Part shown: positions 54,569 to 61,109 of the stretch, in pieces
Position numbering within the stretch: the stretch's first letter is position 1
Layout of the letters: each line of letters opens with the position of its first letter
Origin: Acidimicrobiia bacterium
GTDB taxonomy: Bacteria > Actinomycetota > Acidimicrobiia > Spongiisociales > ZC4RG35
Assembly: GCA_965215185.1 (NCBI GenBank)
Contig: OZ244034.1
Span: 1,439,569-1,503,568, forward strand
Direction of reading: 5' to 3'
Length of the DNA: 64,000 bases
Translations under genes and position numbers: made by a program
Notes under the pieces: generated by a model
Told to the model about the DNA's origin: nothing
What the model saw: only the letters and a program-made list of their open reading frames with translations
Databases searched by the model: none

Positions 54569-55588
54569 CTATATCAAATCCTGCTGGCGAATCCCATAGG
54601 AGGGATGGCGCAACCGACACAATGCCAACTTCTCCAGCTGCCGGATTCTCTCCCGAGTCAACTGGAAGTGGCCGCCGATTTCGTCCAGACCCTTGGGTAT
54701 CCCATCTTCCAGGCCGTATCGCAGTTCCATGATCTTGCGTTCCCGATCGGGCAGTTTCTTGATGGAGTTGCGCATAGCTATCGCCACGCTGGTGGCCTCG
54801 GCAATAGCTGCCGGATCGTCGGCATCCCCGTCTTCGATGAAATCACCCCGCTGCGCGCCATCCTCCCCAACCGGCTCCTCCAAGGAGACGGTGTCCGAAA
54901 GCACCAACGCCTGCTCCACATGGTCGATACGGATGCCCGTCTCCCGCGATATCTCCTCGGGGTTGGGCATGCGACCGAGTTTGCCCTTCAGAATCCCCTG
55001 AGCCAACCGGACTTTGGCCAAGGTGTCGTGCAGGTGAGCGGGGATGCGCACGGTGCGAGACTTGTCGGCGATAGCCCGGGTTATGGCTTGCTTTATCCAC
55101 CAGGTGGCGTAGGTTGAGAACTTGAACCCCTTGCGCCAATCGAATTTTTCCACCGCCCGGATCAAGCCGAGATTTCCTTCTTGGACCAGGTCCAAGAAAT
55201 CGATTCCCCTCACTCCCTGATAGCGACGGGCGTTGTGCACCACCAATCGCAAATTGGCCTGCACAAACTGGTTTTTAGCGTTTTCTCCCCTACGCTTCTG
55301 CTTTTGCAGAACTCTCTTCTCGGAAGCGGTCTCGTATTCGCCCGCCTCCAGCTTTGCTTCGGCTTGACGGCCTCCCTCCATCAACTGAGCCAACTCCACT
55401 TCCTGTTGGGCGTCCAGCAGGTCGGTCTCACTGATCGCTGACAGATACTGGGCTACCAGGTCGGAGGTAAGTCGGCCGCGCTCATCAGTTATCTGATCGG
55501 TGAGGCGCACCCGTCGTTGTCCCTTGGCCTCGGGCCGCCCTCGCTTGACAGAAGCTCGGGTAGCTACAGACGCGTTTCGGTGAATCAT
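54569..55588 (-). CDS. RNA polymerase sigma-70 family factor (group 1/2, SigB-like)
   Basis: Regions 2-4 conserved: [50 protein letters not shown]. Confidence 0.8.
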
Positions 55589-55665
55589 AAGGGTGTTTTT
55601 CTAATCAGCAAATAGATCCTTTTCCTTACTATGTCACAAAAACCATAGATCGGGAACCCCCTTTT

Positions 55666-56646
55666 TCAAATTTGGCGAGGTTCTATGTCCAATAGAAGCA
55701 TTAACTCCCACACGCGCCTTTCTATTTCGTCCCGGGCTCTTCTCATTTCCTCAATGCCCTTCCCCGCTGGCGACTCCATCTGCCAACGCATGTAGCGCTT
55801 GTTCGCCGCCACCGGATGCTGCTCCTCCCCGATGTTCACCACCACCTCGGCCGATGCGACCATGGCCGCATTGAGTCGAACCGGTTTCGCCCCACCGATG
55901 TCTACTCCTCGCTCGGCCAGGACCGCCACCGCCCTCGGGTCCACTCTCGAGGCGAGCGCCGATCCTGCGCTGAACACTTTCACCGGCCGGCCGGACATGG
56001 CGCGGAGCAGGGCGGCGGCCATTTGGGAACAGTCGGCGTCTTGGGCGGCTATGAACAGTACCGAAGGGGCCTTGTATGACGGGGCGGAGTAGGGCTTGTG
56101 TCCCTCCTCCTCGAGAAACTGCTCAAATCGACGTCGAGCCCTCAGCATCGCAACTCTTATCGAGCCTTCTCGCTTGAACAGCCTGCCACCAAGCTCTGCA
56201 TAGGAAAGACCTTCCACCTCCCGTAGCCAAAGCAGTTCTCGATCTTTGGGACCCAGGCGGCCGTAGGCGCGGCGCACCGTCCGAAAGTCCTCTTGGTCCA
56301 AAGCGTGCTCATCGGGAAGTATGTGGGTTGTCTCCAGTTCGGGTGCGGGAAGTGGCCGGTGGCGCCTTCGCAGGTAATCGTGGAATTTGGAGCGGGCCAC
56401 TCTCCAAAACCAGGCCTCGAAGGCTTGCGGTGACCTGAGGCGGCCAATGGAACGGATAATGGACTCGCAGGTATCACTCGCCACATCTTCTGCATCCGCC
56501 AGGTTTAAACCCTGGCCCCGAAAGAAAGCCACCAGTCGGGGTAACCCCTTGGTGAGGATGGCCGCAAGAGCGGCCTGATCGCCGTCCCGGGCGGCAGTGG
56601 CCTCGGATAGAGGGGGAGGCCAGACGGAGGAGTCCGTGGGCACCAT
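55666..56646 (-). CDS. ECF sigma factor fused to a C-terminal degenerate LMW-PTP/ArsC-like domain
   Basis: ECF region 2 (FEAWFWRVARSKFHDYLRRR) and region 4 (LSYAELGGRLFKREGSIRVAMLRAR); C-terminal 135 aa align to ArsC/LMW-PTP but the P-loop is AAQDADCS in place of CTGNSCRS. Confidence 0.65.
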   Translation of the reverse strand: MVPTDSSVWPPPLSEATAARDGDQAALAAILTKGLPRLVAFFRGQGLNLADAEDVASDTCESIIRSIGRLRSPQAFEAWFWRVARSKFHDYLRRRHRPLPAPELETTHILPDEHALDQEDFRTVRRAYGRLGPKDRELLWLREVEGLSYAELGGRLFKREGSIRVAMLRARRRFEQFLEEEGHKPYSAPSYKAPSVLFIAAQDADCSQMAAALLRAMSGRPVKVFSAGSALASRVDPRAVAVLAERGVDIGGAKPVRLNAAMVASAEVVVNIGEEQHPVAANKRYMRWQMESPAGKGIEEMRRARDEIERRVWELMLLLDIEPRQI

Positions 56647-56673
56647 TCGATCTTAAGCTATTACCTTGAAACT

Positions 56674-57636
56674 TCAGGTTCGGGTAATGACCTCGGTATC
56701 GGGAGATCGGAAGCCGTCTTTAGGCGCCGCTTCGTCCTCAGTCCTACCCACCACCAGTGTCATCTTCATCATCGTCGGGCGGCAAGATGATACTCGGCTC
56801 GTCATGGTATTCGAGGATGGGCGTTGTTGCGATTCTTGCGTTTTCAGCAGCCTCGGCAAGTTCCTCGGGATCCGCCGACAGGAGTTCCTCCACTTCGACC
56901 CTGAGAATTTGGCCGAGTTCCTCAATGGTGGGCTGCGGATCGGATACAGCGGGCTGCGAAATCGTTGTGCCCTGTTGGGGATCCTCTCCGTCATCTTTTG
57001 GTGGATCAGTGGCGGGTGGAGATCTGTGGACGACTCGCCCCCCGGGTAGGTGCCTTGCTCGGGGGGAACAGCCCCCCTCACAGTTGTGGACGTGGTCGGA
57101 GTCCCGCCAGCCTCGGCCACGGTAGTGGGCGGTGAGGAGACGTCTTCAGTCGTTCCGCCGGTGCCCGCAGAGCCCGGCATAGCGGCGAGGGCGCTGACCA
57201 CCACCTCCGCTGCCTGCAGTTCCTTTTGCTGGTCGATCAGATCCAGGGCTTCCATCAGTCTTTCCTTGGATATGGTGGGGACCCCGGCTGTGGGCCCCTC
57301 AGAAATAACCGCGTCCGGCGCGGTGCCGGACGCCACAGGAGGCTGGGGATCAGAAACCTGCGAACCGGAGTCAGAGTTCCCGACAATTAACACTAACCCC
57401 ACCGCCAGCACACCGGCGGCCAACGCCAAGCTCGGCGCCAGCAGTCTTATGGCCTTGCTGTGGGAGGGGCGGGCGCTAGCCCGAGCCATGGCACGGGACA
57501 CTAACTGTTCGGCCCGTGCCGAGCCTATTTCATCCCGATAGGATTGGGCAATAGCCCTGAGAGCCTCTCCGGACCGATCCGGTGTATTCATTTTCCTTCC
57601 AACCCGCTTACTCACCAAGACGCTGAGAAGCCCCAA
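56674..57636 (-). CDS. Putative membrane-anchored anti-sigma factor
   Basis: Directly downstream of the ECF sigma gene; single TM (LLAPSLALAAGVLAVGLVLIV); Pro/Thr-rich extracytoplasmic tail. Confidence 0.4.
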   Translation of the reverse strand: MGLLSVLVSKRVGRKMNTPDRSGEALRAIAQSYRDEIGSARAEQLVSRAMARASARPSHSKAIRLLAPSLALAAGVLAVGLVLIVGNSDSGSQVSDPQPPVASGTAPDAVISEGPTAGVPTISKERLMEALDLIDQQKELQAAEVVVSALAAMPGSAGTGGTTEDVSSPPTTVAEAGGTPTTSTTVRGAVPPEQGTYPGGESSTDLHPPLIHQKMTERIPNRAQRFRSPLYPIRSPPLRNSAKFSGSKWRNSCRRIPRNLPRLLKTQESQQRPSSNTMTSRVSSCRPTMMKMTLVVGRTEDEAAPKDGFRSPDTEVITRT

Positions 57637-57698
57637 GCGTTACGGAATCGTCGTGCAACGCGTCTACACCGGTTTTCAATCAGCTAATCTAGCCATTT

Positions 57699-58742: not shown

Positions 58743-61109
58743 GTGGCAGTGTCCATTCGTAGTAACGGGGTATCGCAAGGTTTTCTAGCACTGGTGTTGA
58801 CAGTCTCGATTGTGGTTCCGGCCACGTTCGTCTTCGCCGACAGCGGCTTCTCTGATCTTGACGAAGCGGTTTCACATCGCTCAGCGGTAGAAACACTGGC
58901 CAAAGAAGGAATCCTGACCGGTACCGAGTGTGCTCCCGGAGAGTTCTGTCCCAACGATCCCCTGGAACGGTGGGTCATGGCAGTGTGGCTCGTCCGGATA
59001 CTGGACAGAACCGACTCCGACCCATCATCCACCCGTTTCACTGATGTCGATCACGACCAATGGTGGGTCCCCTATGTCGAACGCCTAGCGGTACTGGGGA
59101 TCACGGTGGGCTGTGCAACTAACCCCGCTCGGTACTGCCCTCACGACAATGTCACGCGCGGGCAGGTGGCCACCTTCCTCACCCGCGCCTTCGAACTCGA
59201 CCCATCGTCACCGTTCGGCTTCACCGACATTGAGGGCAACACCCACAAAACCAACATCGACGCGCTGGTCGCCGCCGGTATCACCGTGGGCTGTGATACC
59301 AACCCTGCCCGGTACTGTCCCGACGAAACCGTCACGCGGGGACAGATGGCCACCTTCCTCACCCGCGCCATCAACACCGCTTCGCCTTCTGTGGAGGGCG
59401 ATTACCGAGACGGCCCGTGGTTGGATTCCCGAGACCATGAGGTGGTGGTGAGGTCCTTCCGGCAGGAATTCAAACGGGAGGAACCAGACCCGCATTTCAC
59501 CGGCAACGCCAACGAATGTGACGCCGGGACAACCAGCCAGGATTTCCGGGACAGCGTGGTAAGCCGGGTCAACTGGTATCGGCGGATTGCCGGTCTGGGC
59601 ACCGTCACTGAGCGGGCACAGCTTTCGGCTGCCGCTCAACAAGCCGCGTTGATGATGGCCGCCCACAGAGATCTTTCGCACAGGCCGAGCAGGACATGGA
59701 CATGCTACACACCATCGGGCGCGTCAGCAGCCGCCAACAGCAACCTCACCATCGGCAGTTTTGGAATAGAGGCCGTTAACGACTACATGCATGACGCAGG
59801 GAAAAACAGCTTAGAAGTTGGCAACCGCCATTGGATCCTCTATCCGCGTCTACTCGAGATTGGCACCGGCGACTTCCCATCTGATTACCCATACATCTCC
59901 GGCAGCAACGTCCTGTATGTGATTGGCGAAACATTCGGGGCATCTCGTCCTGATGTCCGTGAGCCACGTGGCTTTGTGGCATGGCCGCCCCCAGGCTACG
60001 TGCCCGTCGATACAGTTTGGGGCCATTGGTCATTCCATTTGGAGGGCGCCAACTTCGATACGGCAACCGTCAGGGTTGAACACGAACAAGGCCCCGTCCC
60101 GGTCAAGATCATCTCCCGGAGCACAAGGACAGGCGCTCCCGAGTCGGCACTGGTTTGGGCAGTGCATGGAGCCACCGACTCCTTGCCCCTCCCGAGGACT
60201 CAAGGAAGTGATTCCTGCTACAAGATAACCGTCGAAAACGTATATGTCTCGGGAGTGGCCGAGAAGCCATACCAATACGCAACCTGCCTGCTTGACATCA
60301 GCAAGGACACCACCAGACCCATGAATCCCGCCATAGAGAGCCTTGCCTGGTCTCGGGACGGCAGGACCATCGCCTACCTCAGCGACGGGATTTGGACAAT
60401 CAATATCGATGGCGCCAACCAACGGCTATTCCTTCTGGAGAGATTCTCTTTCGCCTGGTCTCCGGATGGCAGCACCATCGCCTATGGCACCGACGGCATC
60501 TGGACCATCAACACCGACGGCACGGACCAACGACAACTCACCACCGATGGATTCCTGCCAGTTTGGTCTCCAGACAGCACCCGCATCATCTATCGCCTCC
60601 CGGGAGGGGGACTGGCCGCCATAGATGGTGACGGCGCCAACCAACAGCAACTCGCCACCGCCGGGCTGGATCAGGCATGGTCCCCGAACGCCGCAAGCAT
60701 TGCCTACGGCCTCTGGGAAGAGGGAATCTGGACCATGAACACCGACGGAACCAACCAACAACAACTCACCACCGACGGATCCAACCCCACCTGGTCACCA
60801 ACCGGCACCCAAATCGCCTACACCAACAACAACCAGATCTGGACCATGAACACCGACGGAACCAACCAACAACAACTCACCACCGACGGATCCAACCCCA
60901 CCTGGTCACCAACCGGCACCCAAATCGCCTACACCAACAACAACCAGATCTGGACCATGAACACCGACGGAACCAACCAACAACAACTCACCACCGACGG
61001 ATCCAACCCCACCTGGTCACCAACCGGCACCCAAATCGCCTACACCAACAACAACCAGATCTGGACCATGAACACCGACGGAACCAACCAACAACAACTC
61101 ACGAAATGA
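58743..61109 (+). CDS. Secreted multidomain surface protein: 3 SLH domains, CAP/SCP-like domain, PD40/TolB-type beta-propeller repeats
   Basis: Signal peptide; three FTD-D...VTRGQ/MATFL SLH-like repeats; PD40-like repeats (DGxxIAY...IWTxNxDG); C-terminus is 3.4 perfect copies of a 37-aa repeat. Confidence 0.65.
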   Translation: MAVSIRSNGVSQGFLALVLTVSIVVPATFVFADSGFSDLDEAVSHRSAVETLAKEGILTGTECAPGEFCPNDPLERWVMAVWLVRILDRTDSDPSSTRFTDVDHDQWWVPYVERLAVLGITVGCATNPARYCPHDNVTRGQVATFLTRAFELDPSSPFGFTDIEGNTHKTNIDALVAAGITVGCDTNPARYCPDETVTRGQMATFLTRAINTASPSVEGDYRDGPWLDSRDHEVVVRSFRQEFKREEPDPHFTGNANECDAGTTSQDFRDSVVSRVNWYRRIAGLGTVTERAQLSAAAQQAALMMAAHRDLSHRPSRTWTCYTPSGASAAANSNLTIGSFGIEAVNDYMHDAGKNSLEVGNRHWILYPRLLEIGTGDFPSDYPYISGSNVLYVIGETFGASRPDVREPRGFVAWPPPGYVPVDTVWGHWSFHLEGANFDTATVRVEHEQGPVPVKIISRSTRTGAPESALVWAVHGATDSLPLPRTQGSDSCYKITVENVYVSGVAEKPYQYATCLLDISKDTTRPMNPAIESLAWSRDGRTIAYLSDGIWTINIDGANQRLFLLERFSFAWSPDGSTIAYGTDGIWTINTDGTDQRQLTTDGFLPVWSPDSTRIIYRLPGGGLAAIDGDGANQQQLATAGLDQAWSPNAASIAYGLWEEGIWTMNTDGTNQQQLTTDGSNPTWSPTGTQIAYTNNNQIWTMNTDGTNQQQLTTDGSNPTWSPTGTQIAYTNNNQIWTMNTDGTNQQQLTTDGSNPTWSPTGTQIAYTNNNQIWTMNTDGTNQQQLTK
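60726..61106 (+). repeat. Perfect tandem repeat, 111-bp unit, 3 full copies plus a partial one, inside the surface-protein gene
   Basis: Unit atctggaccatgaacaccgacggaaccaaccaacaacaactcaccaccgacggatccaaccccacctggtcaccaaccggcacccaaatcgcctacaccaacaacaaccag starts at 60726, 60837, 60948 and 61059. Confidence 0.9.

Follow-up and report, generated by a model that had tools for sequence, protein, structure and literature searches.

An extracytoplasmic function sigma factor fused to a degenerate arsenate reductase-type domain in uncultured marine Acidimicrobiia

The fusion gene and its two halves

The gene described here encodes a sigma factor of the extracytoplasmic function (ECF) type that is continued, on the same polypeptide, by a domain of the low-molecular-weight protein tyrosine phosphatase (LMW-PTP)/arsenate reductase (ArsC) fold from which the residues needed for catalysis have disappeared. 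It lies in a stretch of 64,000 nucleotides of an Acidimicrobiia bacterium (contig OZ244034.1, positions 1,439,569 to 1,503,568; hereafter referred to as the window, in whose coordinates all positions are given), where it forms a single open reading frame (ORF) of 326 aa on the minus strand (55666..56646). Sigma region 2 (aa 35–97, 56356..56544, minus strand; PF04542 Sigma70_r2, E 3e-11) and sigma region 4 (aa 124–173, 56128..56277, minus strand; PF08281 Sigma70_r4_2, E 9.5e-8) are connected by the linker peptide HRPLPAPELETTHVLPDEH, and regions 1.1 and 3 are absent (there is no r3 match in Pfam), as is characteristic of the ECF (group IV) sigma factors; the TIGR02937 sigma70-ECF model of NCBIfam also matches the protein, with 71.3 bits against a cut-off of 42.9. 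The C-terminal domain (aa 196–316, 55699..56061, minus strand) matches PF01451 (LMWPc) over the full profile, with an E-value of 6.6e-11 and 43 bits as compared with a gathering score of 23.2, and the arsenate reductase models in NCBIfam give sub-threshold matches. Neither a SnoaL-like nor a TPR domain has a Pfam match in the fusion protein.

The structural comparisons lead to the same assignment. In a sequence search of the PDB, the top solved structure for the C-terminal 140 aa is ArsC1' of Corynebacterium glutamicum (3t38, E 2.6e-18). In the AlphaFold2 (AF2) model of the fusion protein (mean predicted local distance difference test score (pLDDT) 85.4, predicted TM-score (pTM) 0.62), the C-terminal domain is superposed by Foldseek on the ArsC of Staphylococcus aureus plasmid pI258 (1lk0/1jf8) with a TM-score of 0.86 and a root-mean-square deviation of 1.9 Å, and the N-terminal half gives matches to SigE, AlgU, SigW, SigH, and BldN; the linker between sigma2 and sigma4 is modelled at low confidence. 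An earlier, sequence-only reading of the window had proposed this very order of ECF regions 2 and 4 followed by an LMW-PTP/ArsC fold, and with the profile score and the fold superposition given above, the two-domain description of the 326-aa protein is correct, far beyond chance. Two conserved surface features are specific for the fusion, namely residue W313, which is part of the last helix, and the sequence IEPR(K/R)I, with which the C-terminal tail is formed.

When 5.8 billion clustered proteins were searched, 23 full-length homologs were obtained with identities of 72–98%, all having the same architecture, which together with the window protein constitute the family of 24 members considered below. 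By a species-wide scan with one genome per species, the fusion gene was found in 16 metagenome-assembled genomes (MAGs) of Acidimicrobiia; these and a contig nearly identical to that of the window (L003) provide 17 related loci, in each of which the gene is an intact single ORF of 326–328 aa in a syntenic setting, including complete long-read chromosomes. Only one narrow clade of uncultured Acidimicrobiia has the fusion; several of its MAGs presumably derive from sponges and one from a coral, as judged by the MAG names.

The sequence-only reading had itself pointed to a frameshift artefact as a way in which two separate genes might pass for one. Such a two-gene state, or an artefact of assembly or annotation, is ruled out by the intact ORF in 17 independent assemblies, and that the fusion is an artefact or a decaying, functionless relic is scarcely credible. 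What could be cited in its favor is a 4-nt deletion in the neighboring gene of the window (see below) and a contig of 14x coverage (L034:1222-2201), in which a frameshift inside sigma4 splits the gene into calls of 151 aa and 160 aa; the fragment clusters P0122 and P0121 are explained by this pair of calls, and the split is a single error that does not reflect two genes in nature. A relic is further contradicted by the ratios of nonsynonymous to synonymous substitutions (dN/dS; pairwise Nei–Gojobori estimates at dS ~1), which amount to 0.095 for the sigma core, 0.07 for sigma2 alone, 0.15 for the unusually conserved sigma2–sigma4 linker, 0.43 for the 13-residue interdomain spacer, and 0.20 for the ArsC-like domain. 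Because of this last value, the dead domain must be regarded as maintained: it shows clear purifying selection instead of decay.

Loss of catalysis and origin of the ArsC-like domain

In place of the P-loop CVHNAGRS of active ArsCs, the domain has the degenerate sequence AAQDADCS (56026..56049, minus strand). The sequence-only reading was right in that the nucleophilic Cys has become Ala, but the Arg has been changed to Cys (C206) in the alignment to CVHNAGRS, not to Ser as had been stated; the Ser at the end corresponds to the S/T of CX5R(S/T), which is retained. The degeneration, as judged from the alignment to active ArsCs, extends well past the P-loop and thus beyond that first account. 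The equivalent of Asn13 is an Asp that is invariant among the 24 family members, the redox cysteine pair GCGDAC is reduced to G-EEQH, and the general-acid motif DP has become SP, with Ser292 invariant. Altogether the equivalents of Cys10, Asn13, Arg16, Cys82, Cys89, and Asp105 are lost, and the domain has neither the Cys82/Cys89 relay and the Asp105 acid of the pI258 type nor the C-X5-R-(S/T) P-loop. Throughout the family, Cys does not occur at the nucleophile position (0/24), the P-loop Arg position is occupied by C, R, S, H, or N (Cys in 15/24), and not a single cysteine of the ArsC-like domain is conserved; in several members, sigma2 contains the only Cys of the entire protein. The structural core motifs of the ArsC fold, on the other hand, are kept (LF..., SQMA, SAGS, DEIERRV). 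With its nucleophile, the P-loop Arg, the two resolving cysteines, and the general-acid Asp all lost, the ArsC-like domain is a pseudoenzyme, for which catalysis can be excluded from the sequence.

These replacements also bear on the proposal of the sequence-only reading that the extension senses arsenate, phosphate, or the redox state. If the domain were still a small-molecule or redox sensor, the sigma factor would be switched on or off either when arsenate or phosphate binds in what is left of the P-loop or when Cys206 is oxidized. Indeed, both the backbone of the P-loop and the SQ motif after it are kept, a Cys stands at the Arg position in the majority of members just mentioned, and ArsR–LMWPc fusions are found among the closest relatives, the fold being often linked to arsenic-responsive regulators. 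However, with C, R, S, H, or N at the Arg position, conservation is wanting for a thiol switch as well as for an anion clamp; the invariant Asp, together with a frequent second Asp, His, or Cys in the anion hole, should repel oxyanions; and the only Cys of several members is in sigma2. Furthermore, there are no ars genes in the conserved neighborhood of the fusion, nor near the ECF-only relatives of the sigma factor (44–49% identity, in other Acidimicrobiia, with none of the fusion synteny), and no other ArsC is encoded in the 64-kb window. Because the Arg and Cys positions are not conserved, the anion hole is acidic, often with a second acidic residue, and an arsenic context is missing, oxyanion or thiol sensing appears unlikely, and we consider a switch of this kind quite improbable.

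The nearest relatives of the ArsC-like domain (46–54% identity) are 136-aa ArsCs that stand alone and are annotated from Acidimicrobiia and other actinobacteria; they are of the thioredoxin type and have all catalytic motifs intact. This relationship suggests a local gene fusion followed by the loss of catalysis, and the extra domain is best explained, with fair probability, as having descended, within the same bacterial class, from an arsenate reductase of the LMW-PTP fold that is coupled to thioredoxin. The thioredoxin-coupled ArsCs from S. aureus pI258, Bacillus subtilis, and C. glutamicum (ArsC1') share the fold, with TM-scores of 0.80–0.87, whereas in the present protein the catalytic residues are lost, a sigma factor is fused to the domain, and ars genes are absent from the vicinity.

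An exhaustive phmmer search of 1.84 billion representatives clustered at 50% identity recovered the combination of ECF and LMWPc as one full-length cluster (P0013) and two fragments. Twenty of the longer or multi-stretch hits were scanned with Pfam and proved to be either tandem LMWPc proteins or combinations of LMWPc with ArsR-HTH, PF21234, MIP, or GNAT; no other, independent ECF–LMWPc fusion was among them. The phmmer and BLAST alignments ran into sigma4, from which the idea arose that sigma4 is homologous to the N-terminal PF21234 domain of ArsC1'-type reductases, a homology that would explain the junction; it was rejected after hhalign of the two domains alone gave a probability of 0.4%. 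In their main texts, neither the ECF reclassification nor the ECF evolution paper nor the review of non-canonical ECFs mentions a phosphatase or arsenate-reductase extension, and the architecture of a sigma factor with an ArsC-like extension appears to be undescribed.

The operon, its promoter, and the sigma type

The gene order in the fusion loci is constant, consisting of a divergent gene for a zinc-type alcohol dehydrogenase (ADH), a gene for a single-pass membrane protein, the fusion gene, a SigB-like sigma gene, and livHMGF. The sequence-only reading had placed the single-transmembrane (TM) gene after the sigma gene; since both genes read along the minus strand, the ORF with the single TM segment (listed as 56674..57636) is in fact located on the 5' side of the sigma gene. 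By alignment to the intact 283-aa homolog of L003, the membrane-protein gene, which is a candidate for a regulator or mini anti-sigma factor, extends over 56744..57591 (minus strand), its true start being the ATG at 57591, preceded by the Shine–Dalgarno (SD) sequence GGAAGGA (57594..57600, minus strand). It strictly co-occurs with the fusion gene and is apparently co-transcribed with it.

Upstream of the membrane-protein gene lies the sequence GTAACG-N15-CGTCTTG (57616..57643, minus strand), in which GTAAC and CGTCTTG are invariant in all of the 18 aligned loci. The upstream spacer is otherwise variable, its conserved parts being restricted to GTAAC(G/A), CGTCTTG, and the ribosome-binding site. 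With an AAC-containing −35 box and a CGT-containing −10 box before the sigma factor's own operon, the sequence is predicted to be an ECF-type promoter. The pattern GTAAC-N15-17-CGTCT has a single match in the window, where 0.19 is expected, and each fusion locus contains one copy at the same place. The invariant sequence before the membrane-protein gene suggests that the two genes form an autoregulated operon transcribed from this GTAAC promoter. Upstream of the ECF-only relatives, no consistent matches to the GTAAC motif were found. A further conserved block, ATTACCC ... TA[GCA]C[GT]T, is situated at ~56650..56690 (minus strand) and ends 7–8 nt before the fusion-gene ATG at 56646, a start without an SD sequence; this block may be an internal promoter giving a leaderless mRNA for the sigma gene.

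The sigma core may be compared with those of ECF40, namely SigD of Mycobacterium tuberculosis and C. glutamicum and ShbA of Streptomyces, which are likewise of actinobacterial lineage. ShbA promoters have the sequence CGTAAC-N16-CGATGA (PMC12019637) and SigD promoters GTAACA/G-N16-CGAT (PMC13537577); the promoter found here has a −35 box identical to the ECF40 consensus and a similar spacer length, but as its −10 box it has CGTC instead of CGAT. In the alignment to 3vep_D, the recognition helix of sigma4 (GSIRVAMLRA) is similar to that of M. tuberculosis SigD (GAVRVAQHRA), with which it shares the RVA motif. The ShbA model NF007230 is the best specific sub-family in NCBIfam, only marginally so, with 62.8 bits against a cut-off of 209, and when the full sigma core is compared with the PDB, SigE and AlgU score above ShbA (9isn). 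Because the ShbA score is far below the cut-off, we describe the core as SigD/ShbA-like on the strength of these resemblances and do not file it in ECF40. The ECF40 members, moreover, have no C-terminal extension (PMC12019637), whereas one of 140 aa is present here, and the anti-sigma gene rsdA is located downstream of sigD, ShbA having no anti-sigma factor, whereas the membrane-protein gene is located upstream (−1) of the fusion gene and encodes an unrelated protein that has no match to RsdA_SigD_bd.

The principal-like sigma gene next door also recalls the ShbA–hrdB link in ECF40. This gene (54569..55588, minus strand), which encodes a group-2 (SigB-like) sigma-70 factor with Pfam regions 1.2, 2, 3, and 4, always follows directly downstream of the fusion gene and is ~90% conserved; its score with the NCBIfam SigB model is 314 bits, below the cut-off of 464. 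A cascade of the ShbA–hrdB type onto the SigB-like sigma was considered but finds no support, because the intergenic stretch that separates this gene from the fusion gene contains no GTAAC motif and carries instead a sigma-70-type promoter, TTGAAA-N16-TATGGT (55642..55669, minus strand), detected by a promoter scan and by conservation across the loci. Its TTGAAA −35 box overlaps the TGA stop codon of the fusion gene, and it presumably drives the SigB-like sigma gene, which we treat as context and not as a target of the fusion protein. A second conserved element, TGnCATAGT, follows after this promoter.

The membrane-protein gene of the window differs from that of the 99%-identical L003 by a deletion of four nucleotides (GGAT in the minus-strand orientation, between 57016 and 57017), by which the last third is put out of frame and the ORF reads on to 56674; the deletion represents either a strain-specific pseudogene or an assembly indel. 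In the 17 other loci the gene is intact and encodes 266–302 aa, and the protein family is found only in the fusion clade. Its sole match in Pfam and NCBIfam is a weak one to CU044_5270 (E 0.011), and a profile search against the PDB returned nothing. In a low-confidence AF2 model (pLDDT 57.7), a helix of aa 6–38 precedes the TM segment (aa 47–70), followed by helices of aa 109–136 and 224–261, modelled as two helical hairpins outside the membrane; the consensus of the N-terminal helix is PDxSGxxLRAIAxxYRDExGPARAEQL. The protein is a plausible candidate for a minimal anti-sigma factor. In all 12 of the ECF-only relatives (L020–L031), the −1 gene encodes a protein whose short N-terminus is followed by one TM segment and by an outer region of the DUF5667 type; all have the AVPGxxLY motif of DUF5667, and two were tested with Pfam. 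This protein, encoded before and not after the sigma gene, looks like a conserved uncharacterised partner type of this Acidimicrobiia ECF lineage. The −1 protein of the fusion clade has a similar short N-terminal helix and a different outer part.

The shortness of this helix brings to mind PhyR and NepR, in which an ECF-sigma-type half and an alpha/beta domain are likewise combined and the partner also has a very short helical binding region. By analogy, the sigma-like half of the fusion protein would be a mimic, serving as bait for the membrane-anchored helix under the gating of the alpha/beta domain and thereby releasing a different, true sigma factor; the domain order, a sigma2–sigma4-like half followed by a flavodoxin-like alpha/beta domain, is the same as that of PhyR. 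We consider this explanation very improbable. The Pfam scores of the two sigma domains lie well above threshold and purifying selection on these domains is strong, and the SigD-like recognition helix with a matching GTAAC promoter before the operon is what would be expected of a working, autoregulated sigma factor. In addition, the C-terminal domain is LMWPc and not Response_reg, phosphorylation of an Asp as in receiver domains being impossible in the LMW-PTP fold; the partner, unlike NepR, is membrane-anchored; and PhyR does not occur in the list of the 50 best PDB matches of Foldseek.

Elsewhere in the window, a 788-aa ORF on the plus strand (58743..61109) has Pfam matches to CAP and Tricorn-like beta-propeller families and a faint SLH match, and its C-terminal end is made up of three identical copies of a unit of ~37 aa, NNQIWTMNTDGTNQQQLTTDGSNPTWSPTGTQIAYT. 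It occupies the same position in the near-identical contig L003 and is not present at that position in L001 and L002.

The extension as a regulatory module

ECF sigma factors with a fused extension are represented by ECF41 (SnoaL-like), ECF42 (TPR), ECF56, ECF238 (Cys-rich), and others, which resemble the present protein in having a sigma2–sigma4 core whose polypeptide continues into an additional C-terminal domain of more than 50 aa, an extension that co-evolves with the core and is under selection, and a conserved sigma2–sigma4 linker. SnoaL-like, TPR, Cys-rich, DUF1835, multi-TM, and zinc-finger extensions have so far been described, whereas the LMW-PTP/ArsC fold found here is not among the types in the main texts of the ECF papers named above. 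In concept, therefore, the proposal of the sequence-only reading that a pseudo-phosphatase serves as a C-terminal extension, comparable to those of ECF41 and ECF42, agrees with a domain that is maintained by selection, its sensing part being the one that lacks support.

It is, with moderate confidence, our favored explanation that the locus constitutes a two-gene ECF module, in which the dead ArsC domain is a new C-terminal regulatory extension on a SigD/ShbA-like sigma factor and acts via protein contacts; regulation by such contacts, rather than by chemistry or oxyanion sensing, is the best reading of the catalytic losses and of the maintained fold. In the predicted mechanism, the sigma factor would transcribe its own operon from the GTAAC promoter, and the ArsC-like domain, as a built-in regulatory or protein-contact module, would act on the sigma2–sigma4 unit, on the conserved linker between sigma2 and sigma4, or on RNA polymerase, in the manner of the ECF41 and ECF42 extensions. 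The short N-terminal helix of the membrane protein may then supply a signal-dependent hold on the sigma factor.

Several observations weigh against this explanation. A contact of the ArsC-like domain with the sigma domains, RNA polymerase, or the membrane protein is hypothetical, and with a pTM of 0.62 the arrangement of the domains is not confidently predicted by AF2. The membrane protein gives no Pfam or PDB match to an anti-sigma domain (class I anti-sigma domain, zf-HC2, or RsdA, of ~80 aa); its cytoplasmic part in the AF2 model is a single helix of ~33 aa, shorter than a class I anti-sigma domain; and its gene is frameshifted in the very window under study. ECF sigma factors with C-terminal extensions are usually without an anti-sigma factor (PMC7826278), whereas both would be present here, the second in the form of a putatively co-transcribed membrane protein. 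No second copy of the promoter was found in the 64-kb window or in the fusion loci. Finally, the family is shallow, and with identities of 72–98% the arguments from conservation are of limited power.

The ArsC-like domain might also be a recruitment or docking module that tethers the sigma factor to a partner, such as a thioredoxin-like protein, thioredoxin being the ancestral ArsC partner, or a subunit of RNA polymerase, instead of a brake acting in cis. The kept fold with purifying selection on the domain, the fusion-specific surface features around W313 and the IEPR(K/R)I tail, and the apparent presence already of a separate membrane regulator could all be accommodated by docking. A parallel is provided by Spx (PF03960), an inactive member of the other ArsC family, in which an arsenate-reductase-type fold devoid of reductase activity operates in the transcription machinery; Spx is free-standing, binds the C-terminal domain of the alpha subunit of RNA polymerase, and has retained a redox switch of the CXXC type, and its glutaredoxin-type ArsC fold is unrelated to that described here. 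The cysteines of ArsC that make the contact with thioredoxin are gone, however, and the conserved neighborhood, containing only the ADH, SigB-like sigma, and Liv transporter genes, offers no partner that could be named, so that we regard a docking function as unlikely.

Returning to the favored two-gene module with a contact-based extension, we may speculate on how its two candidate regulators would cooperate. The pseudo-ArsC domain and the one-helix membrane protein could constitute a two-layer ECF switch, in which the pseudoenzyme locks or presents the sigma2–sigma4 unit, similarly to the receiver domain of PhyR, and the membrane-anchored helix binds the composite surface of sigma and pseudo-ArsC, no classical anti-sigma domain being required. 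This elaboration is possible, although on balance rather unlikely; if it is true, the fusion and the membrane protein would have arisen together as a new regulatory principle for ECF sigma factors.

The reach of the finding is limited to one narrow clade of Acidimicrobiia MAGs, with a mechanism that we infer. The case is nevertheless tractable despite the uncultured host, the protein being small and a candidate promoter and partner being defined. A pseudo-arsenate-reductase/LMW-PTP extension would add a new type to the C-terminal extensions of ECF sigma factors, and the fusion would illustrate clearly, for bacteria, how a pseudoenzyme is recruited to control transcription. Altogether, it seems that in a small clade of uncultured marine Acidimicrobiia an old enzyme fold has been recruited as a new type of built-in transcription regulator.

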